This document shows positions 1 to 38,122 of a stretch of DNA of 38,122 bases, piece by piece; the first letter of the stretch is position 1, and every line of letters starts with the position of its first letter. Under the pieces are notes generated by a model. That model was not told the DNA's origin, did no database searches, and saw only the letters and a program-made list of their open reading frames with translations. The translations under genes and the position numbers were made by a program. Origin of the DNA: a virus (taxonomy: Duplodnaviria > Heunggongvirae > Uroviricota > Caudoviricetes); IMG/VR virus record IMGVR_UViG_2698536574_000031, one strand, 5' to 3'.

Positions 1-1053
1 TTAAACTTCGTTTAACGCTTCCTGTATTCTTCGACCAATCCATTTCATGACCGGTACAGGCATTGAATTTCCAATGGCCTTATAACGATGAGCTGGAGAT
101 GAATTTTTCCATGGAATATCTGTATATCCATCGGGAAAACCTTGTAGCCTCTCGCATTCGGTTGGCGTCAACCTACGAACCCTTGAATATGGTGCTCTTT
201 CAACTATGAGCCCACCAGACATAGTCATGTCCTGGTTAGTTGTTCCGTTATAGCCAGCTATTACTGTGCCTGTTCGTTTTGGCAATGCTTCAAGGCAATA
301 TCGGTGCAATTTTCCTTCAATGCCTTGATCAAGAAGGGATTCGGATTTTTTCTTCTTTCCATAATAGTTTTTATCGCCCTGCGACACAGGCGGGAACTCA
401 AATAATACCTTTCCGGGATCGAGCCTTTTTCCAGCACTTGCCACAACAAACACTCTTCTGCGAGCCTGGGCGACTCCGAAATATTGGGCATCAAGTACTC
501 GCCAGGCGACGATACGCGATGGTCCAGACACAACACCAGCGTTTGCCCATCTTTTCCTTGCTGGCTGTAATGCGCAACCTGCTCCGGCCAGCGCACCAAG
601 AAAATGACCGAATGCATTGTCATGGCTACTTAAAACTCCTGTGACGTTTTCCCATACGATTATTGAGGGGGATTTATTGAGCGATGCCCGAACGGTATCT
701 ATCTGATTCGCCAGTTCAACAAAAGACAGTGTTAACTGCCCCCGTGGATCTGAAAGGCCTTTTCGTTTGCCTGACATACTGAATGCCTGACACGGAGTTC
801 CACCTACAAGAATATCTGGTGCTTCAATAAGCCCATCCCTGATACGAGGCGCAAGCAAAGCCATATCACCAAGATTTGGTATATGGGGCCAGCGATATGA
901 AAGAAGTGTTGACGGGAAGTCCTCTATTTCACTGAACCATCTGGCTTTCCAGCCAAGATTGCTCCAGGCTACTGTCGCAGCTTCAATACCACTGCATACT
1001 GAACCATAGGTTAGTGACTTATCAGACTGAAAGTAATGTTTCTTGTTCCCCAC
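1..1053 (-). CDS. DNA (cytosine-5)-methyltransferase, Dcm-like; complete, GTG start lying inside the 3' end of the upstream com-like ORF
   Basis: Translation carries C5-MTase motifs in canonical order: SVCSGIEA (motif I), GGTPCQAFSMSG (motif IV, PCQ), ENV (motif VI), QARRRVFVV (motif VIII), AIGNSMPVPV (motif X). Stop codon is at window positions 1..3. Confidence 0.85.
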   Translation of the reverse strand: MGNKKHYFQSDKSLTYGSVCSGIEAATVAWSNLGWKARWFSEIEDFPSTLLSYRWPHIPNLGDMALLAPRIRDGLIEAPDILVGGTPCQAFSMSGKRKGLSDPRGQLTLSFVELANQIDTVRASLNKSPSIIVWENVTGVLSSHDNAFGHFLGALAGAGCALQPARKRWANAGVVSGPSRIVAWRVLDAQYFGVAQARRRVFVVASAGKRLDPGKVLFEFPPVSQGDKNYYGKKKKSESLLDQGIEGKLHRYCLEALPKRTGTVIAGYNGTTNQDMTMSGGLIVERAPYSRVRRLTPTECERLQGFPDGYTDIPWKNSSPAHRYKAIGNSMPVPVMKWIGRRIQEALNEV

Positions 1054-1207
1054 GGCAGGATTTCCTTGTGTATGTGGGGTGCTCTGTGGCGCTCTGAGAT
1101 GTGATTTGATTGAGGGTTTTACAGCGCGGACATTTTACTTCCAGATAACTGAAACTGGCCCGTGCCAGTAGCTTATTGCAGTGTCGGCACCGTATGTTTC
1201 GATACAT
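1022..1207 (-). CDS. com: Com-like zinc-finger protein (putative translational activator of the downstream methyltransferase)
   Basis: 61-aa product MYRNIRCRHCNKLLARASFSYLEVKCPRCKTLNQ... has the CxxC...CPRC arrangement and size of phage Mu Com. Start taken at the internal ATG (1205..1207) preceded by GGAGG; ORF track extends to 1252. Its 3' end overlaps the MTase start by about 10 codons. Confidence 0.6.
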   Translation of the reverse strand: MYRNIRCRHCNKLLARASFSYLEVKCPRCKTLNQITSQSATEHPTYTRKSCRGEQETLLSV

Positions 1208-1407
1208 GGCCGCATAACCTCCTGCTTTGTTGTTGATGCCTTTCTCATGCAATCGATCGACAAAAACGATCGATTCGATTTGTTTAATTGATACAACAAA
1301 TAGATTTAAAAGTCATCAACAATGATTCAGGACGGTGATTATTTACTTAAAGAAAACGAAGAGTTAGGTGGTGAAAACGATCATAAAATGATCATTTTAT
1401 TGACTTT

Positions 1408-1578
1408 TTATCCAGTGAATCTTGGGGTACACAGGATCTGCATCGCTATCCACATTGCAGTGGTGAAGTTTCGATCCTGTAATGTATTTTCATCAAGTCC
1501 TGAACGTAGCGCATTGATAATTTCTGCGCTTAATATTTCCAGACCTTTGGTATCGGGCTGTTTTTTGTTCTTGTCCAT
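1408..1578 (-). CDS. small hypothetical protein (56 aa, below ORF-track cutoff)
   Basis: Hand-translated: MDKNKKQPDTKGLEILSAEIINALRSGLDENTLQDRNFTTAMWIAMQILCTPRFTG*. ATG preceded by GAGGAAATAATC; sits just downstream of a hairpin terminator. Confidence 0.3.
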   Translation of the reverse strand: MDKNKKQPDTKGLEILSAEIINALRSGLDENTLQDRNFTTAMWIAMQILCTPRFTG

Positions 1579-1611
1579 GATTATTTCCTCTGACTGGTAT
1601 ATACATCGCCC

Positions 1612-1646
1612 ATGAAAATCAAACCGACAGGAGAAGCTGTCGGTTT
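1612..1646 (-). terminator. rho-independent terminator-like hairpin after ORF 1653..1898
   Basis: 10-bp perfect stem AAACCGACAG / CTGTCGGTTT (1621..1646) with 6-nt loop, followed on the minus strand by GATTTTCAT. Confidence 0.45.
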
Positions 1647-1652
1647 GTATTG

Positions 1653-1898: not shown

Positions 1899-1933
1899 GA
1901 ATATTCTCCTTTTGCAGGTATATTGCCCCGTTA

Positions 1934-5016: not shown

Positions 5017-5042
5017 ATCCCTGAAACCTCGGTTTACGGGAT
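5017..5042. repeat. gix-like 26-bp invertase crossover site (gin-proximal)
   Basis: ATCCCTGAAACC TC GGTTTACGGGAT; its reverse complement shares a 17-bp core TCCCGTAAACCGAGGTT and central GA dinucleotide with the site at 6443..6468. Confidence 0.7.
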
Positions 5043-5396
5043 ACGGTAAACAGGGCCGCGAATGCCCTGCCATCAAACGGTACTGCTGTTGCAGCAAGCA
5101 GGCTGGCAAATGCCCGCAGAATCAATGGTGTCGCCTTTGACGGCACGCAGGATATAGACATTACGTCAGGAATGCCGGAATCAACGGCCAATCAGCGTTA
5201 TGTTACAGGGGTAAGACTGGGAGCGCAGGCATTAAGCGGCGGACTGGAATATAATTACTCCCTGTCATCAGGAAATGTGATTACCGGTTTTAAGACTGAC
5301 GGAGACTGGGAAATGCGTGGTGGTGATGACCGTGTTTATTACAGACAGATACAATATTGTATTAATGGGCATTGGGTATCCGCTGCAAGTATTTAA
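5025..5396 (+). CDS. alternative tail-fibre C-terminal cassette (S'v-like; no own start, would fuse to the constant S N-terminus after inversion)
   Basis: Open frame from the gix site: NLGLRDTVNRAANALPSNGTAVAASRLANARRINGVAFDGTQDIDITSGMPESTANQRYVTGVRLGAQ...YYRQIQYCINGHWVSAASI, homologous to the C-terminal 126 aa of the expressed fibre. Confidence 0.6.
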   Translation, partial: NLGLRDTVNRAANALPSNGTAVAASRLANARRINGVAFDGTQDIDITSGMPESTANQRYVTGVRLGAQALSGGLEYNYSLSSGNVITGFKTDGDWEMRGGDDRVYYRQIQYCINGHWVSAASI

Positions 5397-6456
5397 TTAA
5401 CGGGGGCATAGCACACAGCAGCCAGCATCTGAAATATGCGTTATTTCAGACAAGCATTGCCTGTATATGGCGATAGTATTATTCCTGTTTTTATCATTGA
5501 TTTACATGGTGATGTTTATGCAACTGATTAATGTCAAACGATATTACCCGAAAGACAAACCCTATGGTGAGGATGTTCAGTATTTCCAGAGTGAGGACGG
5601 AAGGGATTTTTATGAATCTATCCCGCTTTTTACAAAGAAATACAAACTCTGTATTTCGCCTGTAACGGGTATTATCTGCTCTGTTGCTGAAGATGTCTCT
5701 GCTTTATATCCGGCAGGTTTTACTGTTGTTGAAGTGGACGAACTGCCGGAAGGTGTGAATATTGACGGTAACTGGCAGTTTTCTGATGGCCTGATATCAA
5801 AGGTGCCGGTAAACTGGAAGACGGTTGCTGAAAAGCGTCGCTCATCGCTGCTCCAGGAAGCCAACGAAACCGTGGATGACTGGAAAACAGAATTAAAACT
5901 GGACATGATTAGCGATGAAAATAAATTACAGCTGACGCGCTGGATGGCGTATATCCGACAGCTTAAAGAAATGCACTTTAATGATATTGCCAGTGAGGGG
6001 CATTACCAGGCGATTCCCTGGCCGGAAAAACCGGAATAATTCAGAGGGTGCATTCAGCACCCTTTTCTGTGGTTTACACTGAACTTACCGTTCTCCAGGC
6101 ATTATTAATATAAATCTGAACCGGGCGATAATAGACCCCACCGATATTGTCCGCAGACCGGGAGCCGGTTTCCTGCACGTTAATACCGGAAAGCATACAA
6201 CCGGAAGGTGCGCTGTAATTCCATGACATTTCATTGCCTCCGGGTGAATGATAGCTCTGTGCTCCAAGCTGAACATTCTGTACATACCGGCCATCTGCGG
6301 TTGACTGCGTCATTCCTGACGTGATGTTGATATCCAGCGTTCCGTCAAAAGGAACACCATTAATATTTCTTGGGGTGGCGAGTCTGTTTGCTGCCACGGC
6401 GGTTCCAGCCGATGGCAGGGCATCAGCAGCCTTATTTACCGTTTCCCGTAAACCGA
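5029..6456. other. Gin-invertible tail-fibre segment (G-segment analogue, about 1.43 kb)
   Basis: Bounded by the two inverted gix-like sites; carries two opposed tail-fibre C-terminal cassettes and one tail-fibre assembly gene; the crossover dinucleotide lies in the same codon phase (CTC, Leu) in both cassettes. Confidence 0.65.
5467..6039 (+). CDS. tail-fibre assembly chaperone (Tfa/U-like)
   Basis: 190-aa ORF inside the invertible segment, downstream of and co-directional with the silent cassette; C-terminus ...QAIPWPEKPE is typical of Tfa proteins. True start uncertain (ATGs at 5467, 5506, 5512, 5518; none with a clear SD). Confidence 0.6.
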   Translation: MAIVLFLFLSLIYMVMFMQLINVKRYYPKDKPYGEDVQYFQSEDGRDFYESIPLFTKKYKLCISPVTGIICSVAEDVSALYPAGFTVVEVDELPEGVNIDGNWQFSDGLISKVPVNWKTVAEKRRSSLLQEANETVDDWKTELKLDMISDENKLQLTRWMAYIRQLKEMHFNDIASEGHYQAIPWPEKPE

Positions 6457-6985
6457 GGTTATCGATAAAGGTTCCTTTGTCCTGGATATCCGCGCCATTC
6501 TGGTCCCTGCGCAGGTAACGGTTATCACCTTCGCTCCTGCTGTAAACATCCAGATTATTACGGGCGGTTTCCGCATTCTCCAGGTCGGCAAGGTTCTGAT
6601 CCTTCGCCAGGGCATTAACGTCAGCGGGACCAAGACTGTTTTTTGTGGCAAGCGTCCCCAGACCAAGATAACCACGGGCCAGACGCTGGGCTTCCGCACC
6701 GGCATCAGCAATTTCTTTCAGGTTGTTTTTCCGGGAAAAGGCATTCGCAGCGATAATGGCTTTAATGGACAGCGTAAGCTGGTTTAACTGCGCCTTATCC
6801 GGCTGAATACTGGCTTCAGCCAGAATATTCAGCAGTTCGGCCTGGAGAATATTCAGCCAGTCCTGACCAATCCAGCTGATACCTTTTTGTCCGTCACCTT
6901 CGGTAAACCAGGTGGTGGTATTACTCTGCGCCGGAGCCAGTTCAGGCATATTCGCCACGCCGGAATTATTATCAACATGGAACAT
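6074..6985 (-). CDS. tail fibre protein S (constant N-terminal part plus currently expressed variable C-terminal cassette)
   Basis: Start MFHVDNNSG... at an ATG overlapping the upstream stop (TAATG) with AGGAG upstream; the gix-like site lies at codon 177. Confidence 0.8.
   Translation of the reverse strand: MFHVDNNSGVANMPELAPAQSNTTTWFTEGDGQKGISWIGQDWLNILQAELLNILAEASIQPDKAQLNQLTLSIKAIIAANAFSRKNNLKEIADAGAEAQRLARGYLGLGTLATKNSLGPADVNALAKDQNLADLENAETARNNLDVYSRSEGDNRYLRRDQNGADIQDKGTFIDNLGLRETVNKAADALPSAGTAVAANRLATPRNINGVPFDGTLDINITSGMTQSTADGRYVQNVQLGAQSYHSPGGNEMSWNYSAPSGCMLSGINVQETGSRSADNIGGVYYRPVQIYINNAWRTVSSV
6443..6468. repeat. gix-like 26-bp invertase crossover site (inside the tail-fibre gene)
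   Basis: TTCCCGTAAACC GA GGTTATCGATAA, inverted relative to 5017..5042 and close to the Mu gix / Salmonella hix type. Confidence 0.7.
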
Positions 6986-7545
6986 TAAATATTCTCCTCT
7001 TTGTGACTGTTTGCATACACGTAAATAAACGTCTGCCATGCAGGCTTATAACGGTTCAGAATACATTCCAGCGCACCACCCTCATAAATACGCAGCGGGG
7101 TGAGAATATCATCCAGCACATTCATATTCCGGTAGCCGGTTTCACTGTTTATCGTGACAATACTGACCCACTGTGAATCCGGTGATGGCTGAATATCTAT
7201 TTCATAACCAAACTCTGCCGCAAACCGGATATAAAATTCACGGTTAAGAGAGGGTTTCATCCGGTATTTATTCCCTGCATAACGCTGACGTTCCTGAATG
7301 GTTGCGCCGGTCATATCACATTCCGGTAACCCCAGATAACGCTCCCAGTCTTCCAGCAGCAGACGGGATGAATCAGGAAAACGTTCTGCCAGCATCTGGT
7401 TACCGGTCCAGGAAACACGCTCCGTGGAATGACTGAGGCCCAGGCACAAAGCCGCAAGAACGGATGACGGCCGCTTATCCCATGCCAGCCCGTCAGGCAG
7501 CAACTGCAACAGGGCGCGCTGATGCGGGGTCAGGGTTACAGCCAT
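6985..7545 (-). CDS. tail/baseplate protein (Mu gp48/R-like)
   Basis: 186 aa; position and size match Mu R; translationally coupled to S. Confidence 0.55.
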   Translation of the reverse strand: MAVTLTPHQRALLQLLPDGLAWDKRPSSVLAALCLGLSHSTERVSWTGNQMLAERFPDSSRLLLEDWERYLGLPECDMTGATIQERQRYAGNKYRMKPSLNREFYIRFAAEFGYEIDIQPSPDSQWVSIVTINSETGYRNMNVLDDILTPLRIYEGGALECILNRYKPAWQTFIYVYANSHKEENI

Positions 7546-8621
7546 GTGATTTCCCCCACGGTCAGCAACTCTGTATCTCCGGCCATCACGGACTTCAGCG
7601 GACTGCGAACTTCAAAATCCTCCAGTCCTTTCACCCCTGCAACAGCCCGCCAGAATGATGAAGGCAATACAAGTCCACCCGGCCGCGATTCGTTATAAAG
7701 CAGGTCCGTTAATGCCTGTTTTACGGCAGCCTGATTTTCCGGCGTTTTGGGTACAATCCTGATCTCAAACGCCACCGGCTTATTGGTCAGCTTAAACACG
7801 CTGATTGTCGGCCCAAGTGGCTGACCAACGGGCTGGCCCGTCGCCGGATCATCATGACTGCGGATATAATCCGCCACCCGCTTCACATCACCTTCTCCGG
7901 GGAAAATGTCAGGGTTATTATCCTGAACAAAAGTCACACCAACACTACCCGCCTCAGGCCATTCAGGCTTACACCATGCCCGCGTCACGCCCGGTACTTC
8001 CCGTGCCCAGCGTTCAAAATCATACTGTGTTCCCCCTGATGGCGGGTTCTGTACCCGGAATACCAGCCTGGACAGCAACTCCGGCACCGTTTCCACATCC
8101 GCACCACCGGTGAGTCCCGTGCCGGTGACCGTGGCTGTCTGGTTGATGCCCGCCTGTGGCGTGATAAAGGACAGGCGGGTTCCGGTCGGGGTATTTCCAG
8201 CGCGCCCCGCACTTTCCGCCTCCACATTAACATTCAGTGTTCCGGCTTTTCCGGTCGCAGAGCCGGTGATGCGGTACACAACACCATCGCTTCGCTGAAG
8301 GAGTACGCCTTCCGTGATCCCTGCATCCGTGGTCAGCATCAGTTGTACCGGTCCGTCAGCGCGGGAAGCCGGTTTACGGATGACACCCCAGAATGCGCAG
8401 TGTTTCAGGAGTTCGGCTTCATCAGCTTCTGTCGGAATTATCTGCCGGGAGATCCAGGCCAGATGTTCATGCTCCTGTGCTGACAGACCCGCGAGTGCAT
8501 ACGCAATGGCATTCAGGGTGGTTTCATTCACGCCCGGCTGCGAACCGGGCAGGCGCTGGCTGATATCCTGTTGTGTCTGTGTGATCAGTTGCGCCAGTGG
8601 TAAGGGCTGATAAGGCATCAT
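7536..8621 (-). CDS. baseplate J-like protein (Mu gp47/W-like)
   Basis: 361 aa; synteny and size. Confidence 0.65.
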   Translation of the reverse strand: MMPYQPLPLAQLITQTQQDISQRLPGSQPGVNETTLNAIAYALAGLSAQEHEHLAWISRQIIPTEADEAELLKHCAFWGVIRKPASRADGPVQLMLTTDAGITEGVLLQRSDGVVYRITGSATGKAGTLNVNVEAESAGRAGNTPTGTRLSFITPQAGINQTATVTGTGLTGGADVETVPELLSRLVFRVQNPPSGGTQYDFERWAREVPGVTRAWCKPEWPEAGSVGVTFVQDNNPDIFPGEGDVKRVADYIRSHDDPATGQPVGQPLGPTISVFKLTNKPVAFEIRIVPKTPENQAAVKQALTDLLYNESRPGGLVLPSSFWRAVAGVKGLEDFEVRSPLKSVMAGDTELLTVGEITWL

Positions 8622-9055
8622 TCCCCCTTCATATCAGCATAAAAAATCATCGGATGTCTGCTTCCGTCCGGCAGGGTGATTTTCACGGAAAGCGAAAGGC
8701 GAGCATGCCCCACACGCATGGCATGACATACCACGGATGTGGCAGCACCGCTTTTATGCAGCCACGCCAGCGCTTCATCAGCATAGGCCTGTGCACGGCT
8801 GACCACGGAGGACAGCGTCTTTTCACGGCTTAACAGCCAGAGACGGGAGCCAACGGGGCGCTCCCGGAAACTGTCTCCCCACCATCCCCGACGGTCACGG
8901 GTGCCGTCAGGGATTTCATCGGAATCCAGCGCCCGCCTGTCCGTAAACAGTGAAATAATGACCGCAGTCAGCAGGCTGTTATCCGTCAGAAGATCTGCGC
9001 CGTTCAGTTGCAGGGAACCGCAACCCTGATCCCAGACGACAGCAATATCAGCCAT
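8618..9055 (-). CDS. baseplate protein (Mu gp46-like)
   Basis: Start taken at internal MADIAVVWDQG... with GGGAGGA upstream (ORF track extends to 9268, overlapping gp45); 145 aa. Confidence 0.55.
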   Translation of the reverse strand: MADIAVVWDQGCGSLQLNGADLLTDNSLLTAVIISLFTDRRALDSDEIPDGTRDRRGWWGDSFRERPVGSRLWLLSREKTLSSVVSRAQAYADEALAWLHKSGAATSVVCHAMRVGHARLSLSVKITLPDGSRHPMIFYADMKGE

Positions 9056-9662
9056 TCTCTGGTCCTCCCGTTTTGCTGCCTTCACCGTTATCGTGATGCA
9101 CATGACCTGAATAGGTGATCCCGGCAATAACCGCTTCGGACATCGTGAACGTCCCCTGTGATCTTCCGGTGCCGTCAATGGACACATTGCCTTTGACATG
9201 CAGGTTCTTATCCACTGTGACATTACCGGTAAAGTGAGCCTCCGGTGTATCCACCTGAACACCTTCATCGGCGTAAATCTCCAGCGTCTTACAGGTCACA
9301 ATGATCCGGCCGTTCTTTGTCAGACGTATACGGTGCCCCTCATGGTGATACACGCCGGTATCTCCGGCGGTAAGTCCGGTCGGGCGACTGCGGCGGTCTT
9401 CCACCACAAGCACCACGGCCTGATCCCGTTGTCCGCCAGCACAGGCCAGAAAAACTTCCGCACCAGGCAGGGGGACGCTGATTTGCCCGTACTGCTGGGG
9501 GCGTTCAACGTCATCAAAGGTTTCACCATCCATACCGGTTATTTGCACATTCTGGATTTTCAGCGTGTCCGTTGTGCCGGTCAGTACACCACGCCCGAAC
9601 AGCAGACGAACACCCCGCATTACGGGGGCCAGAAGGCGGCTGATGACTTCGTCATTCATCAT
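9048..9662 (-). CDS. baseplate assembly/central spike protein (Mu gp45/Q-like)
   Basis: 204 aa; synteny. Confidence 0.6.
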   Translation of the reverse strand: MMNDEVISRLLAPVMRGVRLLFGRGVLTGTTDTLKIQNVQITGMDGETFDDVERPQQYGQISVPLPGAEVFLACAGGQRDQAVVLVVEDRRSRPTGLTAGDTGVYHHEGHRIRLTKNGRIIVTCKTLEIYADEGVQVDTPEAHFTGNVTVDKNLHVKGNVSIDGTGRSQGTFTMSEAVIAGITYSGHVHHDNGEGSKTGGPENG

Positions 9663-10776
9663 TGAATTTAATCCCCTGTTTTTTCATCTGTGCCCGCACG
9701 AAGGCGTCCACGTCACCCGCATTTCCGCTTCCGCTGTTTCCCGGCTCTGCCGGAACAATAAAGCCGTCACGGGGTGCCAGAATCAGACGGGTGGTTTCGC
9801 CGTGATTTGCATCCAGCGAAAACTCCACCTGACAGACAAGAAGATCACGCTCTTCCACTCCGGTGCGGGGAGCCGTGACAGCCGTCAGCAGGTTGATATC
9901 CCACAACTGGCCGTTCTCCCGAAACCAGTGCCGCACGGTGGCTGTCAGGCGCACAGAGCGGGCAACCGCCCGGCGCATTTCCCGGACAGCCCTCTGGCGT
10001 GCACCGTCTGCATCAACAGCATGATCCGCCAGCACAATTTTCGGTCTGTAACGGTGGATGGCACTGTCTGTCACCGTACCAACTGGTGCGGCCAGCGTTC
10101 CGGCTGTCAGTGCATCCCCGGCATGACCACCACCACGCCCGTGCCCCCGTACACGGTATTCACTGTGGCGCAGACGGTGATCCACGTTGTGATCCAAATC
10201 CAGCAGATTTTCGCCCAGCGTCAGCGTGTCGCCACGCTGACTGCCGGCCTGAGTGAAAACCAGTTCACCGGCGGCATTACTGGTTACCAGGACGCCTCTG
10301 TGTCTCGCGGCCCGTGTCAGCGCATCTGCCACGGTTTCTGAATTTTCCAGTGTGAAGGTGGAAAAGGGCCGGGCTGCCGTTGCATCATTTACCTGCCAGC
10401 GCACCGTGACCCCGAACGGAGCACACAAATCTGAAGCAATGTGCTCCAGCGTGCGGTTCCTCCACTGGCTGCCCGGATGAATGGCTGAACAGTCCACCAG
10501 GTCACCGGTTTTATCCCGTCCGCTGAGCGTGATCTGAAAACGCGTGGCGCTGATGCGCTGCCGGACCTGATCCAGCCAGCCAGTGATCACAGGCTGACCG
10601 TCAATGCGCAATTCCAGAGACTGACCGGCACGGACGGATGACGGAAGGCGTACACCGGGCATCATTACCCCCAGTTCAAAGGAGCCCGCCAGATGTTCAA
10701 GAGAGCGACGAACACTCACCGTCAGCCAGCCGGAAAAAATCTCACCGCCCAGATACAGTTCAACCCTGCTGCTCAC
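9652..10776 (-). CDS. tail protein P (Mu gp44-like)
   Basis: 374 aa; synteny and size. Confidence 0.65.
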   Translation of the reverse strand: MSSRVELYLGGEIFSGWLTVSVRRSLEHLAGSFELGVMMPGVRLPSSVRAGQSLELRIDGQPVITGWLDQVRQRISATRFQITLSGRDKTGDLVDCSAIHPGSQWRNRTLEHIASDLCAPFGVTVRWQVNDATAARPFSTFTLENSETVADALTRAARHRGVLVTSNAAGELVFTQAGSQRGDTLTLGENLLDLDHNVDHRLRHSEYRVRGHGRGGGHAGDALTAGTLAAPVGTVTDSAIHRYRPKIVLADHAVDADGARQRAVREMRRAVARSVRLTATVRHWFRENGQLWDINLLTAVTAPRTGVEERDLLVCQVEFSLDANHGETTRLILAPRDGFIVPAEPGNSGSGNAGDVDAFVRAQMKKQGIKFNDE

Positions 10777-15154: not shown

Positions 15155-15162
15155 GCCTTACC

Positions 15163-26324: not shown

Positions 26325-26326
26325 CG

Positions 26327-26922: not shown

Positions 26923-27130
26923 GACGGGCCTCCATGATGTTCTGGCAGTTCACACAACGGATGGCATCCGGCACAGCAACAAGACGTGCGGCGGGGATCT
27001 CTCCGCCACAGTCCGCGCAGACACGTCTGCCCGGAGCATCCATTGCCCGGCGCTTACGTGTCAGCCGGTTACAAAGGGCGCGTTCTGATCCCCGCTCCAT
27101 CACAGCCTGAGCACGATCTGAATCATCCAT
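26903..27130 (-). CDS. TraR/DksA-family C4 zinc-finger protein
   Basis: CADCGGEIPAARL...CVNCQ; start taken at internal MDDSDR with AAGGAAAAAGG upstream. Confidence 0.6.
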   Translation of the reverse strand: MDDSDRAQAVMERGSERALCNRLTRKRRAMDAPGRRVCADCGGEIPAARLVAVPDAIRCVNCQNIMEARHVGQHR

Positions 27131-28835: not shown

Positions 28836-28868
28836 TTAAAATAAAAATCCCGCGTTGTGGCGGGATTT
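28836..28868 (-). terminator. rho-independent terminator after the GemA-like gene
   Basis: Stem AAATCCCGC / GCGGGATTT with 6-nt loop, followed on the minus strand by TTATTTTAAA. Confidence 0.5.
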
Positions 28869-28872: not shown

Positions 28873-29382
28873 TTAACGGGGAAGTGATTTTTCATACTGC
28901 CTGCAAACGGCGTCATACCCCATCAGCGTGCGTTCGGGCATTCCCATCGCGGCCAGCATTTTGCGGCGGTGCCATCGCTTGAGACGCTCCAGCACATCTG
29001 AGGCCAGGGCGGGGTGTTGCTCCAGCCACTGCCAGTTTGCCACACCTTCGCCGCCGTTCTGCGCGGCCGTCTGCGATTTCACCCAGCGGTTAAGGGCGGT
29101 TTCCGCACCATCAGAGATAAAGCCCTGCCGGTGCATTACCTTCCAGATGGCACGAATTCTGGCGGTCACCGTACCCGGTTTTAAGGCCCGGTTAACCGGC
29201 TTCTGGCGCACTTTAAAACCGCGTTTTTTGAAAACATCCAGCACGCGGGATAACTCATCCGCTGACATATCCCGGCAGCTGGTTTTGCCGGTGGCTGCCA
29301 GCAGCGCGGATGTATAAGTCTCATCATCCAGGGCAAGCTCGCGCTTTGCCACATGAATGGCGGATATCAGTTTTCCTCTCAT
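28873..29382 (-). CDS. GemA-like early regulatory protein (Mu gp16 family)
   Basis: 169 aa; N-terminus MRGKLISAIHVAKRELALDDETYTSALLAATGKTSCRDMSADELSRVL; position before Mor/C. Confidence 0.55.
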   Translation of the reverse strand: MRGKLISAIHVAKRELALDDETYTSALLAATGKTSCRDMSADELSRVLDVFKKRGFKVRQKPVNRALKPGTVTARIRAIWKVMHRQGFISDGAETALNRWVKSQTAAQNGGEGVANWQWLEQHPALASDVLERLKRWHRRKMLAAMGMPERTLMGYDAVCRQYEKSLPR

Positions 29383-29675
29383 ACCGTATTTACCTTTTTA
29401 CGGACATGGAAAGCCTTTTCTGCCTCATCCCACCGGGCATGGTGTGTTGGTGGAATAATCATTATGTGCCAGCCATCTCTGGTTGTTATTCGGCAGAAAA
29501 ATTCACCGCTATATAACACAATGGCCTGCTGAATGAGCGCATCAGCCGCCCGTTCAACCGGATGTCTTTTATCAAAAAAGAAGATGATTTTTCGACATAA
29601 CCACCGGGTAATAACAAATGCGCCGAAAAAGGATGTGATATATAAGCACCAGAACAACAGAGAACTATTGTCCAT
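29379..29675 (-). CDS. hypothetical membrane protein (98 aa)
   Basis: N-terminal TM LLFWCLYITSFFGAFVITRWL; AT-rich codon usage. Confidence 0.4.
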   Translation of the reverse strand: MDNSSLLFWCLYITSFFGAFVITRWLCRKIIFFFDKRHPVERAADALIQQAIVLYSGEFFCRITTRDGWHIMIIPPTHHARWDEAEKAFHVRKKVNTV

Positions 29676-29862
29676 TATCTTTCTCCTTATTCACTCTTCT
29701 GCGGCATTCGGCACAGTCATCAGGGCTTTCAAATGTATCCGGCTCGCGATTATGAGCCAGATATAACCACCGTCCACATATACTGATATTTTCGCCTGTT
29801 TTAAAAAAATGATGCTTCCTGGCCATTAGTGGCCTCGCCCATCCAGCGGGTAGACTATTCAT
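29665..29862 (-). CDS. hypothetical small Cys-containing protein (65 aa)
   Basis: ICGRW ... CAEC spacing suggests a zinc ribbon. Confidence 0.35.
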   Translation of the reverse strand: MNSLPAGWARPLMARKHHFFKTGENISICGRWLYLAHNREPDTFESPDDCAECRRRVNKEKDNGQ

Positions 29863-30190
29863 TTGCTTTATCCTCCATGCTGGACAGAATCATATGTATT
29901 AATGTCGGGCGTGGAGATATACGCATTTCATTAAGCGTCTGAAGGGCAGCAACAGCTGCCTGTTTATCGGTGCCTTTGGCTATCTCTGCAAGAGAATGCA
30001 CAATCCATAACGGACTTAACGCCACGGCTGAATCCAGAATCATGTCATCCATAATAATTTCTGGCATATCCCGCTTGTCACATTCTTTATCCATAAAAGA
30101 AACGATTTTTTCTGCATCTTCCGGTTTCATGCCTCCGGCGATGAGAATTTTACGATATTCATAAGACGATCTTAATTCAATACTCATCAT
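29855..30190 (-). CDS. hypothetical protein (111 aa)
   Basis: Tightly packed early-operon ORF; no recognisable motif. Confidence 0.4.
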   Translation of the reverse strand: MMSIELRSSYEYRKILIAGGMKPEDAEKIVSFMDKECDKRDMPEIIMDDMILDSAVALSPLWIVHSLAEIAKGTDKQAAVAALQTLNEMRISPRPTLIHMILSSMEDKANE

Positions 30191-30202
30191 TCACCTGCCT
30201 GT

Positions 30203-30571
30203 TTAATCAGTTTCCAGTGCTTTGCTACGGGCAACAGCCTCACACTCAAAAAATACCGACTCCGGCACACGTTCTTTTAATTCACGAACAAGGAAGTTAT
30301 TAACGCGCTCGTGACATCTTATATTTCTTTCCTTTTCCTCCTGGCGTAATACAGCAAGGCGGTATTCAACAGTCCGGCGTTGTTTCTGAAAGACAGCCAG
30401 TGCTTTTCTGGCAGAGTTACGCCATGTATCATCACCACAGGGTGCGTATTCAAGCTGAAATTTAATCTCTTCAATGGTTTCTTTTATTTTTGCCAGCAAG
30501 CTAAGACAGTCGCTGATTGTCTTCAGTTTTTCATTATCAATATAACTTCTCACGCATTCACCTCCCGTCAT
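30203..30571 (-). CDS. hypothetical protein (122 aa)
   Basis: Start taken at internal MTGGECVRSY... giving an ATGA junction with the upstream gene. Confidence 0.4.
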   Translation of the reverse strand: MTGGECVRSYIDNEKLKTISDCLSLLAKIKETIEEIKFQLEYAPCGDDTWRNSARKALAVFQKQRRTVEYRLAVLRQEEKERNIRCHERVNNFLVRELKERVPESVFFECEAVARSKALETD

Positions 30572-30879
30572 TCCGGTAAAGCTGAAATATGGCACCAGTG
30601 CGTCACCTGTCCGTCCTCATCTTCAAGGCAGTCTCCGGTTTCTTCATCAATAAAAAAGCCTTCATACCCCATATGGCCGATGCGCAGTTCCTGTTGGTCA
30701 CCATACTGAACAATCAGCACGACAGCCTCCATATCAGGCGGAAATGCGTCATCCAGTGAATGCCAGGGATAACCGCGCAAATCCCCGAAATAAACACCGG
30801 TCAGCGTTCCGCCACAAACCGACATTCCGGCGGCACATACCAGAGGCTCGTCTGATTCAACAAATAATGTCGTTATCAT
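30568..30879 (-). CDS. hypothetical acidic protein (103 aa)
   Basis: DEETGDCLEDEDGQ acidic patch; overlapping start/stop with neighbours. Confidence 0.4.
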   Translation of the reverse strand: MITTLFVESDEPLVCAAGMSVCGGTLTGVYFGDLRGYPWHSLDDAFPPDMEAVVLIVQYGDQQELRIGHMGYEGFFIDEETGDCLEDEDGQVTHWCHISALPE

Positions 30880-31427
30880 GGCATTAACTCCCGTAATACA
30901 ACATCTTCGGCAGTCCGGCGATGGTGATAAATAAAATTTACCGTACTCTCGGATAATTCAAATTTCTCGCCTATTTCCCGGAAGGTAAGACGTCGTGGTG
31001 ATTCAGCATCCCGTAATTCACGAATAAGACGAACATCATCATCAGATATACGGGTGAAGGGCAGCAATTCTCCGTATTTTTTCATGCTTACGCCAATATA
31101 TCGCGCCCGATTGTGGACAGAATCCCGGTCTCGCCCCAGATATTCTCCTATTTGCTTACCGGTCATCGTTCTGGCATTTTTTCGGATAAATTTATCTTCA
31201 TCATGTTTAAATCTTGGACGTTTGCATTTGAGCAACTCCGGGTAAGTGCCGCGTAATAAAACAATCCGGTGATGTACACCCCAGAAACTTCTTTTTACCC
31301 TGACAGCAATATCCTTAACCGGGGTGGATGGATAAAGCGCAATCAGCAGTGCATCTTCTTCAGGTGTCCACGCACGGACATGAGCGGGTGCACGGCCTTT
31401 TCTCCCCATGGGTTGTAATTTCATCAT
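30876..31427 (-). CDS. putative DNA-binding protein with three HTH-like repeats
   Basis: WTPEEDALLIALY (Myb/SANT-like), MTGKQIGEYLGRDRDSVHNRARYIG, and C-terminal LTFREIGEKFELSESTVNFIYHHRR resembling the Mor/C HTH. Confidence 0.45.
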   Translation of the reverse strand: MMKLQPMGRKGRAPAHVRAWTPEEDALLIALYPSTPVKDIAVRVKRSFWGVHHRIVLLRGTYPELLKCKRPRFKHDEDKFIRKNARTMTGKQIGEYLGRDRDSVHNRARYIGVSMKKYGELLPFTRISDDDVRLIRELRDAESPRRLTFREIGEKFELSESTVNFIYHHRRTAEDVVLRELMP

Positions 31428-32482: not shown

Positions 32483-33073
32483 TTATTCCTCCGTTATTGC
32501 GATGAATTCGGAATGCTTGATTGCCATCAATGACGGATGCAGCTTTTCAGGGGAAAAGGCATTATCTGATTCACCGACAGGAATACGAACCACAACAGCC
32601 CCTTTGTCGCCATAGAACCCGGCAGAAGAGCACGCCATAACTGTGCGGCCGTTGCTGACACCAAAAACCTCAAAATAGCAGTCCAGTTTATTAACCATCC
32701 AGGTACTGAATGACGGAAGCTGTTTTAACTTCTCGTTTAAGATATTCAGTGCTTTGTTCAGTTTTTTTCCCTCTCTGAATCTGCGGTCGGGCTTAACTGA
32801 AAATAAAACGCGGCCATCTTCATCAAATTTATCAGACAGCACCCGCTTATTTCTTCCGACATCAACATCCTCATGAACCAGTATTGATGTGACAAAAATA
32901 TGCCCACAACACCAGAAGTAAAGGTATCCTTTAGCTCTATGATTACTGAGAAAATCATCAATCAATTTCTTGCGCTCCCTGCCAGCGCAATCAAGCCATT
33001 CCCTGTGATAATGACGGGAATCGCGCTCATTCATTTTAAAATAACGATATTTTATACTCATGATATGCCTCAT
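32483..33073 (-). CDS. hypothetical protein, lower-GC accessory gene (196 aa)
   Basis: Visibly AT-rich relative to the structural genes; no recognisable motif. Confidence 0.45.
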   Translation of the reverse strand: MRHIMSIKYRYFKMNERDSRHYHREWLDCAGRERKKLIDDFLSNHRAKGYLYFWCCGHIFVTSILVHEDVDVGRNKRVLSDKFDEDGRVLFSVKPDRRFREGKKLNKALNILNEKLKQLPSFSTWMVNKLDCYFEVFGVSNGRTVMACSSAGFYGDKGAVVVRIPVGESDNAFSPEKLHPSLMAIKHSEFIAITEE

Positions 33074-33145: not shown

Positions 33146-33676
33146 TTATTTATTCAGTCCGGCGTCCTGTTCAAAAGGCTCGACATGAAAACTTTCAGCG
33201 CCTTTATTCACCTTAATACCGGCAATCCCTTTCACCGCATCCGGCTCTGCCAGGACAGCTTGCTTATTCACTTCCTCTTTCGTGCGGATGAAGCGCTCAA
33301 GCCCCATACGACGCAGCATTTCAATCACACCTTCCACATCACGACTGACGCTGCATGATGGATTTCCCAGCCGCCATGACACCGTTCCGGTGGTCAGATT
33401 GGCAGTTTTGGTTTCGCCGCCGTTCGTCAGCTCATTGCGGTTGGTTTTACACCAGTCATGAATCCCTTTAAAAAGCACTTTGATTTCTTTTTTAAGGTTT
33501 TCAATCTGCGGCGTATAACGGGCGGTGATTTCTGCCACTTCATCATTCATTGCCGTTTCCAGGCGCAGCGCCTCTCGCTGAATATCGCCCAGGGTGCGGA
33601 TATCGCGGCTGACTTCTTCGCGGGTCTGCGGTGCAGCCTCGGCTGCGGCCTTTAATTTTGTAACACGTTTAACCAT
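33146..33676 (-). CDS. gam: Gam-like host-nuclease inhibitor (DNA-end binding)
   Basis: 176 aa from internal MVKRVTKLK (AAGGAAA upstream); blocks GDIQREALRLETAMNDEVAEIT, ELTNGGETKTANLTTGTVSWR and FIRTKEEVNKQAVL recalled as matching Mu Gam. Confidence 0.8.
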   Translation of the reverse strand: MVKRVTKLKAAAEAAPQTREEVSRDIRTLGDIQREALRLETAMNDEVAEITARYTPQIENLKKEIKVLFKGIHDWCKTNRNELTNGGETKTANLTTGTVSWRLGNPSCSVSRDVEGVIEMLRRMGLERFIRTKEEVNKQAVLAEPDAVKGIAGIKVNKGAESFHVEPFEQDAGLNK

Positions 33677-34535: not shown

Positions 34536-34536
34536 C

Positions 34537-34803: not shown

Positions 34804-35031
34804 TTAGCTGACTTGTTTCGCACCAACAGAACGGCATATTCCGCTGTAAACTTCTGTCGCACCTTCGCGATCAAGTCCGGCAGATATCACCATTCGTGTG
34901 CGGTCATTAAATTCAAAAAGTAAATCGCCACATTCTTTATTTTCGGCCAGTGAAATCACCTTCACGTTATCGAAATTAACCAGGTAAAAGCGTCCGTAAA
35001 TATCAGGAATATAAAATACCGCCATAATCAC
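34804..35031 (-). CDS. hypothetical early protein (75 aa)
   Basis: ATGA overlap with the B stop. Confidence 0.4.
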   Translation of the reverse strand: MIMAVFYIPDIYGRFYLVNFDNVKVISLAENKECGDLLFEFNDRTRMVISAGLDREGATEVYSGICRSVGAKQVS

Positions 35032-35960
35032 ACCTGTGAGAGTAATTCAGGGTTGGTATAAACCTCTTTAAAGGCCGCATTAATATGTTTTTCTGTCAGC
35101 GCCGCACCTTCACCGCTGGCGGTGAGCCACGCCTGGTTAAGCGTATGTGTCAGAACGCGTAACGCTCCCGGCTTTTCAGCGATAGCCTGCATGACGGCCA
35201 GCTCGGCCTCACCACTGATACCCCATGCCCTGGCAATGGCCAGCACATCCGCCTTTTTGGCCTTGCGAAGTTGTTTTGTACGGGCAAGACGGCTGAACAG
35301 GCGCGATAAATCATCAAAGGCGCGGCGTCCACCTTTAAACAATCCGCGCGGGTTACCAATAAGCACCATCCCGATCCCCGTGGCGTCCTGAATTGCCCGG
35401 AGTTGCTCCAGACCGTCAATACCAAGATGATCCGCCTCATCCACAATCACCAGTCCACGCGTTCCCATCAGGCGACGGCGGATGGCGCGGGATAATGCCC
35501 CTTTGTTCGCGCGGGTGTAATCAATCCCCAGCGCATCGGCCAGCTCCAGCAGACACTCCGTGACGCTGGAGTGCGCGGGTGACAGGGTGATCATCCAGGT
35601 GTTTGGTTGCTCCTGGCAGTAATTACGGGCGGTGGCCGTTTTACCTACCCCCGGCACGCCCACAATGACGTTAATACAGCCCATCAGGCGAACCGCCTGA
35701 AACAGTGCGCGCAGCTCCTGAACTGTCTGCGTTTCCACAAACTGCGGCGGTTCCGGCAGTGCGCTTTGTTTATTCCAGTTCTCATACCAGGAACGCAGGG
35801 AAGCAGCCACAGCGGCGTTATCGCCTTTATATTTCCCCTTGCGGAAAGCCGATAATGTGCCGTCGGAAATTCCCGCCTCTCTGGCGATGGCATACTGCGT
35901 CAGTACGCCGCCATCAATAAGTTCATCAATGGTCTTGATTACATCGTTAATATCAGTCAT
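35028..35960 (-). CDS. B: MuB-like AAA+ ATPase, transposition target DNA activator
   Basis: 310 aa; N-terminal HTH region then Walker A GVPGVGKT and Walker B LVIVDEADHL; directly downstream of the transposase. Confidence 0.85.
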   Translation of the reverse strand: MTDINDVIKTIDELIDGGVLTQYAIAREAGISDGTLSAFRKGKYKGDNAAVAASLRSWYENWNKQSALPEPPQFVETQTVQELRALFQAVRLMGCINVIVGVPGVGKTATARNYCQEQPNTWMITLSPAHSSVTECLLELADALGIDYTRANKGALSRAIRRRLMGTRGLVIVDEADHLGIDGLEQLRAIQDATGIGMVLIGNPRGLFKGGRRAFDDLSRLFSRLARTKQLRKAKKADVLAIARAWGISGEAELAVMQAIAEKPGALRVLTHTLNQAWLTASGEGAALTEKHINAAFKEVYTNPELLSQV

Positions 35961-35984
35961 ATTATTAACCTCTCATTTGATACC

Positions 35985-36019
35985 TTGTTTAATCAAATAA
36001 CCTGAGTCGCCGCTCGGGT
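35985..36019. promoter_or_regulatory. intergenic hairpin between transposase and B genes
   Basis: AAATAACCTGAG / CTCGGGTTATTT 12-bp stem (one G-U) with 6-nt loop, T-run on the + strand and A-run on the other side. Confidence 0.3.
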
Positions 36020-36031
36020 TATTTTTTTATT

Positions 36032-38122
36032 TCAGGCCAGCGGGTCATTTTCTTTTAATTTCGCTTCCAGCAACTGCAATCCCCGCTGGAAATTACGCTC
36101 GTATTCTTCATCAGGTTCATCGTCAGCGACCGGTTGCTGAACGGTCACCGTATTACCCACAGGGCGGTATATGTTTTCCAGCCAGGGCTCCTGCGGCTTG
36201 TGCTCCAGCACGTTGACAACCTCATCCTCGGCATCACGGATTTTTTCCTCTGCGCGTTTACGCATGCCTTTAAGGCGTTGCTGCTGTTTGTAGTATTCCG
36301 CGCTAACCGGGAAGGCTTCGCGTTTATTACCGTCCCATACCGCCTCGCAAATCACGCTGCCATCCAGGCGACGTACGGTAATTCGTTCGGCATCATGAAT
36401 GTCATAGCTGATAAGCACCTTACGACCATGCTCGTCACGCAGCTCGGGCGCGTAGTAAATATTATTCAGCCAGCGTATTTCACAGCGTCTTACAGGGCGT
36501 TCCACCATCGGCCGGAACATATCCCGCAGCTCAACATCGGACAGCCATTCAATTTCCGTGTCCTCTTCCGCCAGGCGTTTTTTTCTGAACTCCGCCGGGC
36601 TGTAATGCTTGCCGTTCGGCTTCACCGGTAATTCATCGTGCGGCCGGTTGTTGTACCACTCAACACCGTCACGAATGGCATCAATCAGTTCAGACCAGGA
36701 CGGTAAATCACGCATCGCTGACTGCTGCCGGGCGTTCAGCCGTTTGCCCTGTTGCAGGGCAGTAAATGCCGAGCGTAAATCGCGGTTGGTTTTGCGTAAC
36801 GTCTCGCGATCTGCACCTTTCCCGAAATAGGTGCGGTATTTACGGGCTATGCGCATCGGTAATGTGCGGTTAAGCCGTTCGATAATGCCTCGTCCCTGCG
36901 GATTACCGGCAATCCCGGTCGGGTGATTAATCCCCAGTCGCGGCAGTATCCCCACAACCTCCTTATCCAGGATGTCGGCGGTTTCCCCGGAGCCGTTATC
37001 CGAGTAATACAGAAACGGTTTGCCGTGATGGCGAATGCCGTGCTGTATGGCACCGGCTACGGCGAAAACATTTTCAGCCAGGTCAAGGCTCCAGCCCACC
37101 ACAAAGCGCGTGCCACCGTCGATAACAAAGGTCACTTCCGGTGCAAATGGCCGACCGTGAACCGGGTGTGCGCATTTCATCTTCATGCCGTGACCGTCAC
37201 CAATCCAGACATAATTCACCGGCATTCTGGACCAGTCGCGGCGCGTGAATCCCTCAAGCTGACGGTATTCACTGCCTGTCACCCGGCCTTTTTGTTTCAC
37301 CACTTCCGGCAGTTTCTTCATTGCGCGGCGAATGGTGTCATAAGAGGGCATGATATCGAGCATATAAGGCTCATCAGCGTGCCGGAGCCGCCATTCAGCA
37401 ACAAAATCCTCGTAAGCCTCGGTCATTGGTCGGCCGTTTGACTGGCGATACTGCGCCAGAAATTCGGGCAGCCAGTTAATATCTTCGGCTTTTATTTCCT
37501 GGCGTTTACCCGGTGCCAGTAAAAGCAGGCGTTCAGCGGCGTTCTGTGCCTTGTTAAAGGCCGCAATCCATCGCTTCAGCGTGATTTCACTCAACGCACG
37601 GCTGTTTCCCTTTTTGGCGTTCGCCGTCTCAACCATTGCCACAATGCGCTCGTCCAGCTGTGAACGTGCCAGGTTGTCAACGATAAACCGGATAGCCTTC
37701 GCGCAGCTGAAACCGGGTTGTTGCGCGACTTTCATCACTTCGCTGACGATCGCGATTCGTGCATCAGCCACCTGGCGCTGGTTTTCAGTCAGGGCATTGA
37801 GGCGTTCGACCATCAGTTGTGGTGATCCGCGATATGCCTCCACCGCATCAACCACGTCAGATGAGCGTCTGGCCTTTGTCACCACCGGAGCCGGTGATTC
37901 ATCGGCTTTTTGCGTCATCAGTTGCAGGGCATAACGTTCACGTAATGCCTGCTGCGTCACTTCAGGTAAACAGTCGATGCTGTATTCAGTTGCTTTAGAG
38001 CCTGAGCGACGACGGGAACAACAGCTTTTCCCTTGTACGTAACGTTGTAATGCCTGGCGAATACCTTTTGTTGTAGCAGGCATTCCGGGCGCGCCAATCA
38101 GTTCTTTTGCAATGACATACAT
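36032..38122 (-). CDS. A: MuA-like DDE transposase; start codon at the window edge
   Basis: 696 aa; N-terminal end-binding region MYVIAKELIGAPGMPATTKGIRQALQ aligns with the recalled start of MuA; central retroviral-integrase-like catalytic core. Confidence 0.9.
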   Translation of the reverse strand: MYVIAKELIGAPGMPATTKGIRQALQRYVQGKSCCSRRRSGSKATEYSIDCLPEVTQQALRERYALQLMTQKADESPAPVVTKARRSSDVVDAVEAYRGSPQLMVERLNALTENQRQVADARIAIVSEVMKVAQQPGFSCAKAIRFIVDNLARSQLDERIVAMVETANAKKGNSRALSEITLKRWIAAFNKAQNAAERLLLLAPGKRQEIKAEDINWLPEFLAQYRQSNGRPMTEAYEDFVAEWRLRHADEPYMLDIMPSYDTIRRAMKKLPEVVKQKGRVTGSEYRQLEGFTRRDWSRMPVNYVWIGDGHGMKMKCAHPVHGRPFAPEVTFVIDGGTRFVVGWSLDLAENVFAVAGAIQHGIRHHGKPFLYYSDNGSGETADILDKEVVGILPRLGINHPTGIAGNPQGRGIIERLNRTLPMRIARKYRTYFGKGADRETLRKTNRDLRSAFTALQQGKRLNARQQSAMRDLPSWSELIDAIRDGVEWYNNRPHDELPVKPNGKHYSPAEFRKKRLAEEDTEIEWLSDVELRDMFRPMVERPVRRCEIRWLNNIYYAPELRDEHGRKVLISYDIHDAERITVRRLDGSVICEAVWDGNKREAFPVSAEYYKQQQRLKGMRKRAEEKIRDAEDEVVNVLEHKPQEPWLENIYRPVGNTVTVQQPVADDEPDEEYERNFQRGLQLLEAKLKENDPLA

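Follow-up and report, generated by a model that had tools for sequence, protein, structure and literature searches.

What kind of element lies behind a phage genome that follows bacteriophage Mu through its whole core and departs from it in its accessory genes? The question is raised by a 38,122-nucleotide stretch of viral DNA (IMG/VR record IMGVR_UViG_2698536574_000031), the whole of which was analyzed and is referred to below as the window. A preliminary description, made from the letters of the sequence, had presented it as a near-complete Mu-like transposable prophage with swapped accessory ends. The results described below (features collected in Table 1) agree with a Mu-like transposable prophage that combines a conserved morphogenesis core with exchanged accessory modules, and they make it very probable that the window comprises the coding portion of an Sp18-type prophage of Escherichia coli. 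It is the variant of this family in which mom, the gene that follows com in Mu, has been replaced by a gene for an orphan C5 DNA cytosine methyltransferase.

The comparison with Mu was based on 55 Mu proteins, used as tblastn queries against the window. Matches were obtained for 36 of them. They are strictly collinear, the first being A (38122->36065) and the last Com (1201->1073), and many of the products are close to their Mu counterparts in size (window/Mu, in amino acids, aa: A 696/663, B 310/312, TerL 554/551, T 315/305, L 499/495, tape measure protein 691/690, gp47 361/360). The genes from gp25 to gp48 are all there, in the order of the Mu head and contractile-tail genes and with 34-73% identity (N 35%, P 47%, gp45-48 49-53%). 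The order from A to S is that of Mu and the sizes are similar, as had been claimed, but the agreement is not gene for gene: transposase A is only 22% identical, a single Mor/C-type gene is present, and Mu kil, gp6-9, gp13-14, gp18-20, gp24 and mom found no tblastn match in the window.

The Mu-type genome lies on the minus strand, as do nearly all long open reading frames (ORFs) in the ORF list of the window, and it runs from the ATG of A at position 38122 to the stop codon of the last right-end gene at position 1. The stretch was thus cut from gene to gene, which is why the repressor, ner and both ends are absent from it; only the repressor/ner/attL region (approx. 1.3 kb) and attR (approx. 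165 bp) are lacking, beyond the cut. The term "near-complete" consequently describes where the window was cut and not decay of the element, and "swapped ends" can be judged at the right end and in the early region only, the left accessory end (c, ner, attL) being outside. The structural genes (8-29 kb) have a G+C content of 55-63%; it is lower, 44-54%, both at 1-7 kb (right-end block) and at 29-35 kb (early region).

The closest relatives are prophages in genomes of Shiga toxin-producing E. coli (STEC), which are 89-99% identical to the window at the nucleotide level, in many cases with a coverage of 84-97%. The family is not new: it has been described as Sp18, it is common in Shiga-toxin E. 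coli and it is annotated in GenBank. Sp18 of strain O157 Sakai was reported as an apparently intact Mu-like prophage whose invertible host-specificity region is distinct from that of Mu (PMC2669165), and strain FRIK804 has a sibling at a different locus (PMC7430833). The window is also matched by the "region of the inserted Bacteriophage Mu-like phage" annotated in two Shiga toxin (Stx) phage records (LC727881, LC727895). Sp18, Phi804-3 and the element named Mu_JNE082796 in these two records (a literature search on this strain name returned nothing relevant) are 89-99% identical to almost the whole window, and Sp18 and its relatives share with it the type of transposase, the ends, the short invertible segment, gin, the esterase cassette and com. 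Counted by its left 8 kb (positions 30000-38122), the family occurs in 248 of 5426 complete E. coli genomes.

Within this family the window is a mosaic, different stretches being best matched by different genomes. Positions 1-8000 are closest to the element of FHI_NMBU_11 (99.4%) and 4000-7500 to an O157:H7 strain (99.9%), nothing matches 30000-38122 above 97.7%, and LC727881 is 89% identical over 1-25000 and 97.7% over 25001-38122. In LC727881 (positions 1174-41149) and LC727895 the methyltransferase variant sits inside an Stx-converting prophage, i.e. one phage is nested in a toxin phage.

The transposition genes are of the Mu type, although A is divergent. Alignment with MuA (25% identity with mafft) pairs D309 and D375 with D269 and D336 of MuA, two of the three catalytic residues; the third, E392 of MuA, probably has its counterpart in E415 of a GIIERLN motif, even though the global alignment did not place it. 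About 1.5 kb of the gene (36136-37593) is 81% identical in DNA to Yersinia Mu-like phages. A MuB-type AAA+ target-capture protein is encoded beside A, as is characteristic of Mu-like transposable phages.

The ends and the target duplication were determined in relatives of the window copy, from seven insertions for which both junctions were collected. The element of FHI_NMBU_11 (99.4% identity in the first 8 kb) interrupts ttdB, and its junctions could be fixed against the intact K-12 gene; the other insertions lie in a gene of an integrative and conjugative element, a glycosyltransferase gene, a sulfatase gene, an Stx phage, a hydrolase gene and, in FORC_044, between a glycine-zipper gene and ndh, where no disrupted gene is annotated. 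In all seven the termini read 5'-TGTAACCAGGT...CGCCGCGCTATA-3' (5'-TGTAACC...CGCTATA-3'), i.e. TG...TA, and a perfect 4-bp duplication (AGAG, TCTG, GATA, TATA, CATC, AGCT and TTTC) borders the element. Our first reading of the junctions, a 5-bp duplication, was rejected, as the fifth base matches in just three of the seven pairs; in the GenBank record LC727881, too, its depositors have marked a duplication of 4 bp around the 39,968-bp element. The preliminary description had expected Mu-type ends with a 5-bp duplication and had named the lack of both as what would speak against it. Since ends and a duplication exist in seven relatives, this objection falls, but the duplication is of 4 bp and not 5 bp.

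Each end of the LC727881 element carries three TTTGATAC(C/T) repeats, putative transposase-binding sites that are spaced on the left (19/114/166) and clustered on the right (19/41/76). The end sites of Mu are arranged as L1...L2-L3 and R1-R2-R3. The layout of three plus three is thus the same, whereas the Sp18-type repeat sequence (TTTGATACC) is unrelated to that of Mu. The right end of the window copy, approx. 165 bp past position 1, would be expected to read ...ATCGCCGCGCTATA. Together, the divergent MuA-family DDE transposase and the MuB-like ATPase would insert the element almost anywhere and leave a 4-bp duplication.

What distinguishes the window within the family is the gene downstream of com, where no Mom is encoded. 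Assignment of this gene to the C5 cytosine methyltransferases is supported by TIGR00675 (137 bits, cut-off 100.65) and by the motifs PCQ (IV) at residue 87, ENV (VI) at 135 and GNS (X) at 328; AQARRRVF was assigned to motif VIII by eye, the automated Q[RK]R pattern having given no match. Homologues include a protein of Pectobacterium phage ZF40 (64%) and the C5 domain of P1 Dmt (48%). The PDB matches M.HhaI and M.HaeIII were rejected as a guide to specificity, because they cover the conserved catalytic motifs only.

In the Sp18-type copies examined in O157:H7 and other STEC, a near-identical com is followed by the gene of a Mom homologue (in the O157-type siblings a protein of 245 aa with 79% identity to Mu Mom). 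Comparison of the window with O157 revealed two substitutions in approx. 215 aligned bases through com and the codons GTG-GGG-AAC; from there the two sequences diverge completely, and only the final ~110 bp of the right end are alike once more. Mom has therefore been replaced by the methyltransferase with the joint three codons after a shared GTG start, and since the joint lies past this start, neither com nor the hairpin that masks the start codon has been altered. In the predicted fold the 5' arm of the hairpin is formed by the E-H-P-T codons of com, and the GUG start lies in the 3' arm. The same structure is predicted for all five com-cargo junctions compared (the window, Mu com-mom with CCCAC...GUGGG, O157 mom, and two methyltransferase variants, one of Salmonella with 68% identity and a second one of E. 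coli with 79%), and all five downstream proteins begin with V-G-(N/K).

According to work by Hattman and by Wulczyn and Kahmann, as cited in PMC3299994, binding of Com in Mu opens the hairpin and permits translation of mom. Together with this mechanism, the shared start, first codons and hairpin lead us to infer that the methyltransferase is gated by Com and acts late. Its translation would most likely have to await the production of Com late in lytic growth, after which the enzyme would methylate progeny DNA and protect it against restriction. Two GATC sites (positions 1255 and 1268, 13 bp apart) lie 48-61 nt upstream of the com start, in a 146-nt stretch where approx. 0.5 would be expected; the pair recalls the Dam-sensitive GATC cluster upstream of the Mu mom promoter. 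The claim that the right-end cargo has been replaced holds for mom, in whose place the methyltransferase is found, whereas gin (75%), com (52%) and the Com-responsive start are kept; a block of approx. 3.2 kb lies between gin and com. Only the gene downstream of com has been swapped and not the whole end.

A com homologue followed by a methyltransferase in the position of mom is also known from B3 (ORF47/48), FluMu (HI1522.1/HI1523), Pnm1 and the Hia5 system, and control of the Com type has been proposed for these genes as well (PMC3299994). These enzymes are N6-adenine methyltransferases, non-specific where tested (PMC3299994), whereas the enzyme of the window is a C5-cytosine methyltransferase (PCQ/ENV). 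In the library searched, no paper on the pairing of Com with a C5 methyltransferase was found. At the mom-type and C5 junctions examined, the joint lies just downstream of a shared GUG-GG start, and it is about an even chance that com and its start-codon hairpin form a fixed, portable translational gate for different DNA-modification genes (Mom, N6-adenine and C5), a reading based on the mom-type and C5 junctions.

The second accessory module examined was the tail-fibre switch, for which the preliminary description was accurate on two counts: the fibre is shorter than that of Mu (303 aa, 6985->6074, against 504 aa for Mu S, residues 1-191 of which match it at 48%), and the invertible segment is half the Mu size (approx. 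1426 bp against 3059 bp for the Mu G segment, i.e. 47%). The first crossover site was located with a 26-bp query that we take to be the Mu gix sequence. Both gix-like sites have the central dinucleotide TC/GA and are held within an inverted repeat of 179 nt (5025-5203 and 6282-6460, 75% complementary), and the gene of a Gin-type serine invertase, the first 201 nt of which are 75% identical to Mu, lies adjacent. Inversion in silico at these sites gave an intact fibre of 298 aa with a related tip, the constant part being joined in frame to Sv', followed by tfa in sense; the tips end in ...VYYRPVQIYINNAWRTVSSV (303 aa, present orientation) and ...VYYRQIQYCINGHWVSAASI (298 aa, flipped). The flipped 3.5-kb sequence was found as one uninterrupted match, with up to 99.9% identity, in natural genomes. 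The orientation of the window was seen in 184 genomes and the flipped one in 27 (184/211, 87%), counts that include many O157 clones, are not independent and do not represent a rate. Since the flipped sequence exists in 27 genomes and a second lineage also shows both orientations (L010 and L011), the switch is real.

Gin would thus flip a 1.43-kb segment and join the constant stem to either tip, with the chaperone gene tfa in sense behind the fibre in the flipped state only. The segment contains one tfa gene, in place of the Sv-U and U'-Sv' pairs in which each orientation has its own chaperone. In the present orientation the fibre and tfa converge, their stop codons separated by a 34-nt spacer with a hairpin (6043-6065), and a sigma-70 scan for a tfa promoter gave matches at chance level only. 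The one-chaperone segment may represent either a true on/off switch or a two-receptor switch with a single Tfa serving two tips, a possibility that we rate below that of the Com gate.

These results have to be set against other explanations of the same DNA. Phage Mu or D108 (genus Muvirus) with nothing but its accessory ends swapped would account for the gene order and the very similar sizes, and Gin (75%) and TerL (73%) are close to Mu. Nevertheless, we give this reading almost no credence, as the DNA alignment with Mu (blastn) covers 28.7% of the window at a mean identity of 69.4%, and D108 and SfMu reach 69% across ~55% of the head region, short of the ~70% or more over most of the genome expected within the genus. 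The transposase is only 22-25% identical, the end sequences and repeats differ (TG...TA and 4 bp in the relatives, TG...CA and 5 bp in the genus), and there is one Mor/C gene where Mu has two. The window shares with Mu and D108 the order from A to S, the MuA/MuB machinery, the Gin/gix switch and Com with a hairpin over the next start, and differs in the shorter fibre, in an invertible segment of 1.43 kb carrying a single tfa gene (in Mu 3.06 kb, with both U and U'), in the inserted esterase cassette, in the replacement of mom and, judging from the relatives, in the right terminus and duplication. The alignment to Mu and D108 that had been proposed thus points away from a variant of either and to the separate Sp18 family.

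Some features do weigh against an Sp18-type transposable prophage with the functions proposed here. The right terminus is TA, whereas DDE elements commonly end in CA; tblastn with Mu Mor and C disclosed only one Mor/C gene in the window, and a C-type late promoter could not be recognised upstream of com; and the sole tfa is antisense to late transcription in the commoner orientation, that of the window. In addition, the ends, repressor and target duplication of the window copy lie outside the window, so that its integrity and mobility are inferred from relatives, and the copy itself may be presumed active. That it is a decaying, immobile remnant of superficial completeness would fit the missing repressor, ner and ends, the broken plus-strand ORF at 1322-1615 and the frameshifts in the tape measure gene or gin of some relatives. 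The failure of mitomycin C to induce Sp18 (PMC2669165) likewise counts in favor of a remnant and against our interpretation. We consider decay very improbable, however, as all Mu-homologous genes of the window are open throughout and have the expected length, and as the missing parts coincide with the gene-to-gene cut and do occur in close relatives. Mu itself is not inducible by the SOS response. Moreover, the family is found at many loci with clean duplications and in both fibre orientations, and has therefore been recently active. Equally hard to sustain, and in our view very unlikely, is the idea that the inverted repeats at ~5.0-6.5 kb are the fossil of a deleted Mu-type G segment that no longer switches: only one tfa is left, the segment is half the size of G, one orientation prevails and gin is frameshifted in one relative, but the very sequence predicted by crossover at the central dinucleotides occurs in nature in two lineages, and both fibre frames and gin are intact in the window. 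The switch has the parts of a Gin/Cin/Pin-type system: an adjacent serine invertase, two inverted 26-bp sites and both orientations with an open fibre frame. As regards the methyltransferase, it could be ordinary lysogen cargo, i.e. the modification half of a restriction or defence system or a constitutive orphan, and not a late function gated by Com. Its best PADLOC matches are type II and orphan methyltransferase models, its dependence on Com is read from sequence, and no late promoter was recognised upstream of com. This explanation is unlikely, though, given that no restriction or nuclease gene is found near it (in relatives only ~165 bp of attR follow, then host DNA), that PADLOC recognised no defence genes among ten accessory proteins beyond these generic models, and that the exact GTG start, first three codons and enclosing hairpin of mom are shared. 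The gene is present in 10 of the 5426 E. coli genomes, directly after com in every one of them, and homologues in Salmonella (a cluster of 1584 sequences) and E. coli also directly follow a Zn_ribbon_Com gene; LC727881 and LC727895 carry the same enzyme (99.4% aa identity). Control by Com thus remains the reading that we prefer.

The block of ~3.2 kb between gin and com consists of an esterase gene (SASA/DUF6645), DUF1378 and DUF826 genes and a broken plus-strand ORF. The esterase has the SASA domain with GQSN and the C-terminal DUF6645 domain that mark NanS-p proteins, and its C-terminal 560 codons (2274-3957) show 78-81% DNA identity to the nanS-p (yjhS) genes carried by many Stx phages, in which the order DUF1378-DUF826 after nanS-p is presumably the same. 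Whereas NanS-p of Stx phages is carried by lambdoid phages, the present copy is on a Mu-like phage and differs in its N-terminal ~115 residues. These first ~115 codons (3958-4302) lie beyond the Stx-phage DNA match and have no Pfam match, and the cassette therefore appears to be joined to a different N-terminal module. The protein would act as a sialate O-acetylesterase, its cassette riding between gin and com as lysogen cargo. In the library searched, no paper was found that connects nanS-p with Mu-like phages. Of six relatives examined, FORC_044 has the plus-strand ORF intact (154 aa) and five have it frameshifted, so that the gene appears to be in decay; in this region (1322-2027, plus strand) the window lacks ~171 bases that relatives carry.

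In the early region, the ORFs without a Mu match fall into PHROG and Pfam families typical of Mu-like early regions. Among the small early genes, phrog_2679 carries the annotation Kil; among the six accessory genes the one for the helix-turn-helix protein matches phrog_323 ("transcriptional regulator, D5-like", 6.8e-59), and the others belong to PHROGs of unknown function. PADLOC gave no match for six early proteins (32483-33073, 30876-31427, 30203-30595, 29855-30190, 33687-34007 and 33985-34257).

The Mor and C queries both matched the same single locus (28378-28803), which lies between a terminator-like hairpin on its upstream side and the lysis genes downstream. The hairpin (28868->28845) holds the place of the terminator/Pm region of Mu and resembles the terminator/dyad at the Mu middle promoter. 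With one Mor/C-family gene only, the three-step cascade of Mu, in which Mor acts before C, cannot apply as such, and the single activator probably turns on the Mu-like lysis, head and tail programme. A 17-nt motif, AT(C/T)CCGCAAA(A/G)CC(C/T)GCC (ATYCCGCAAARCCYGCC), occurs on the minus strand at 20432-20448, upstream of I, and at 28360-28376, upstream of lys (its presence at these two places being due to the construction of the motif search). Neither com nor P is preceded by a copy. The motif may represent an activator site of late promoters. A shorter motif, AWATYCCGCMA, was more frequent than expected (21 against 6.5) but spread through coding sequence, and hence uninformative.

Two further features of the core have to be mentioned. 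A tRNA-like element occupies a 121-nt gap between F and G that has no equivalent in Mu; its acceptor and T arms are good and its anticodon arm is oversized. PGAP labels it tRNA-OTHER in relatives, and the weak match comes from a local Rfam search only, ARAGORN and a whole-window Rfam search at gathering thresholds having found nothing. An ORF of 60 codons (14174-14356, minus strand) overlaps the 3' end of gp41 in another frame, stops just before the tape measure gene and fits the programmed frameshift extension of gp41 known for Mu.

Table 1. Features of the window, from the transposase gene to the last right-end gene (percentages are identities to the Mu proteins)
Feature	Position	Strand	Evidence
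Transposase A, 696 aa, MuA family but divergent	36032..38122	-	Pfam Mu-transpos_C (PF09299) 1.5e-17; HTH_Tnp_Mu_1 (PF02316) 1.9e-6
Transposition ATPase B, 310 aa, adjoins A	35028..35960	-	48% to MuB; Pfam Phage-MuB_C 2.5e-25, AAA_22
Five small early genes	34804-35025, 34537-34791 (Kil-like), 34254-34535, 33985-34257, 33687-33980	-	PHROG 1e-38 to 2e-59
Gam, host-nuclease inhibitor	33146..33676	-	54% over 174 aa
DUF5420 early protein, no Mu counterpart	32483..33073	-	Pfam DUF5420 1.3e-13; phrog_2260
gp11 homologue	31946-32479	-	69%
gp12 homologue	31431-31946	-	54%
Six early accessory genes without Mu match, including a helix-turn-helix protein (30876-31427)	29379..31427	-	PHROG
GemA homologue	28873..29382	-	43%
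Terminator-like hairpin between gemA and the Mor/C gene	28845..28868	-	9-bp stem, then T-run
Mor/C-family transcription activator, only one, 141 aa	28378..28803	-	39% to C, 26% to Mor
Endolysin	27806-28306	-	39% to Lys
i-spanin	27343-27771	-	Rz-like spanin PHROG
o-spanin	27141-27383	-	39%; Rz-like spanin PHROG
TraR/DksA-type zinc-finger gene at the lysis/packaging junction, Mu gp24 position	26903..27130	-	phrog_54 1e-19; RefSeq name in relatives
gp25 (DUF2730 releasin), gp26, gp27 (small terminase)	25743..26922	-	34%, 63%, 57%
Large terminase TerL (gp28)	24079-25743	-	73%
Portal (gp29)	22490-24079	-	57%
Head protein F (gp30)	21175-22506	-	59%
tRNA-like element between F and G, antisense to phage genes	21094..21173	+	Rfam tRNA 31 bits, gathering score 29
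G	20580-21053	-	54%
Protease/scaffold I	19279-20403	-	47%
Major head protein T	18332-19279	-	67%
Connector/tail genes gp35, gp36, gp37, gp38, L, M, gp41	14298..18288	-	39-61%, same order as Mu
Sheath L	15163-16662	-	50%; 499 aa, 495 in Mu
Tube M	14789-15154	-	49%
Tail chaperone gp41	14298-14774	-	Mu homology
Tape measure protein, 691 aa	12096..14171	-	38% to gp42 (690 aa)
Baseplate genes N, P, gp45, gp46, gp47, gp48	6985..12109	-	35-53%, collinear
Tail fibre S, present orientation, 303 aa; constant part to ~6469, variable tip 6454->6074	6074..6985	-	phrog_1833 1.4e-164
gix-like crossover site inside the fibre gene	6443..6468		23/26 positions to the presumed Mu gix; 0/100 shuffles matched
Invertible segment, ~1426 bp between site centres	5031..6454		gix-like sites, in-silico flip
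Tail-fibre assembly gene tfa, only one, probable start 5518, 173 aa	5467..6039	+	29-30% to U, U'; phrog_136 1.1e-57
Alternative fibre tip Sv', silent in the present orientation	5031..5396	+	57% to S residues 429-503
Second gix-like site, next to gin, inverted	5017..5042		read directly; outer edge of the inverted repeat
Gin-type serine invertase, 186 aa	4402..4962	-	75% to Gin; Pfam Resolvase 1.4e-51, HTH_7
NanS-p-like sialate O-acetylesterase, 679 aa	2263..4302	-	Pfam SASA 1.2e-11, DUF6645 4.1e-70; GQSN motif
DUF1378	1934-2116	-	Pfam 1.2e-38
DUF826	1653-1898	-	Pfam 3.1e-15
Plus-strand ORF remnant, broken, divergent from com	1322..1615	+	phrog_26524 matches residues 1-41 only
Com, zinc-ribbon translational activator, 61 aa	1022..1207	-	Pfam Zn_ribbon_Com (PF10122) 5.8e-13; 52% to Com
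Hairpin CCCCAC...GUGGGG enclosing the methyltransferase GUG start	1045..1081	-	predicted folds
Orphan C5 DNA cytosine methyltransferase, 350 aa, in the place of mom	1..1053	-	Pfam DNA_methylase 1.6e-42

As a prophage the element is ordinary, a member of a common, named (Sp18) and GenBank-annotated family, and its value is that of a clean comparative case. With its 4-bp duplication, TG...TA ends and a transposase only ~25% identical to MuA, the family provides a second well-populated reference for Mu-type transposition. Its esterase cassette shows gene flow from lambdoid Stx phages to a Mu-type genome in the same hosts, and its half-size switch with a single chaperone gene raises the question of how two alternative tips are folded. 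Siblings that are near-identical through com and carry either Mom or a C5 methyltransferase make the cargo-independence of Com control directly testable. If com and its hairpin do form a portable gate, the window and its Mom-carrying siblings would constitute a natural swap experiment, in which Com reads the upstream RNA only and gates an unrelated enzyme.

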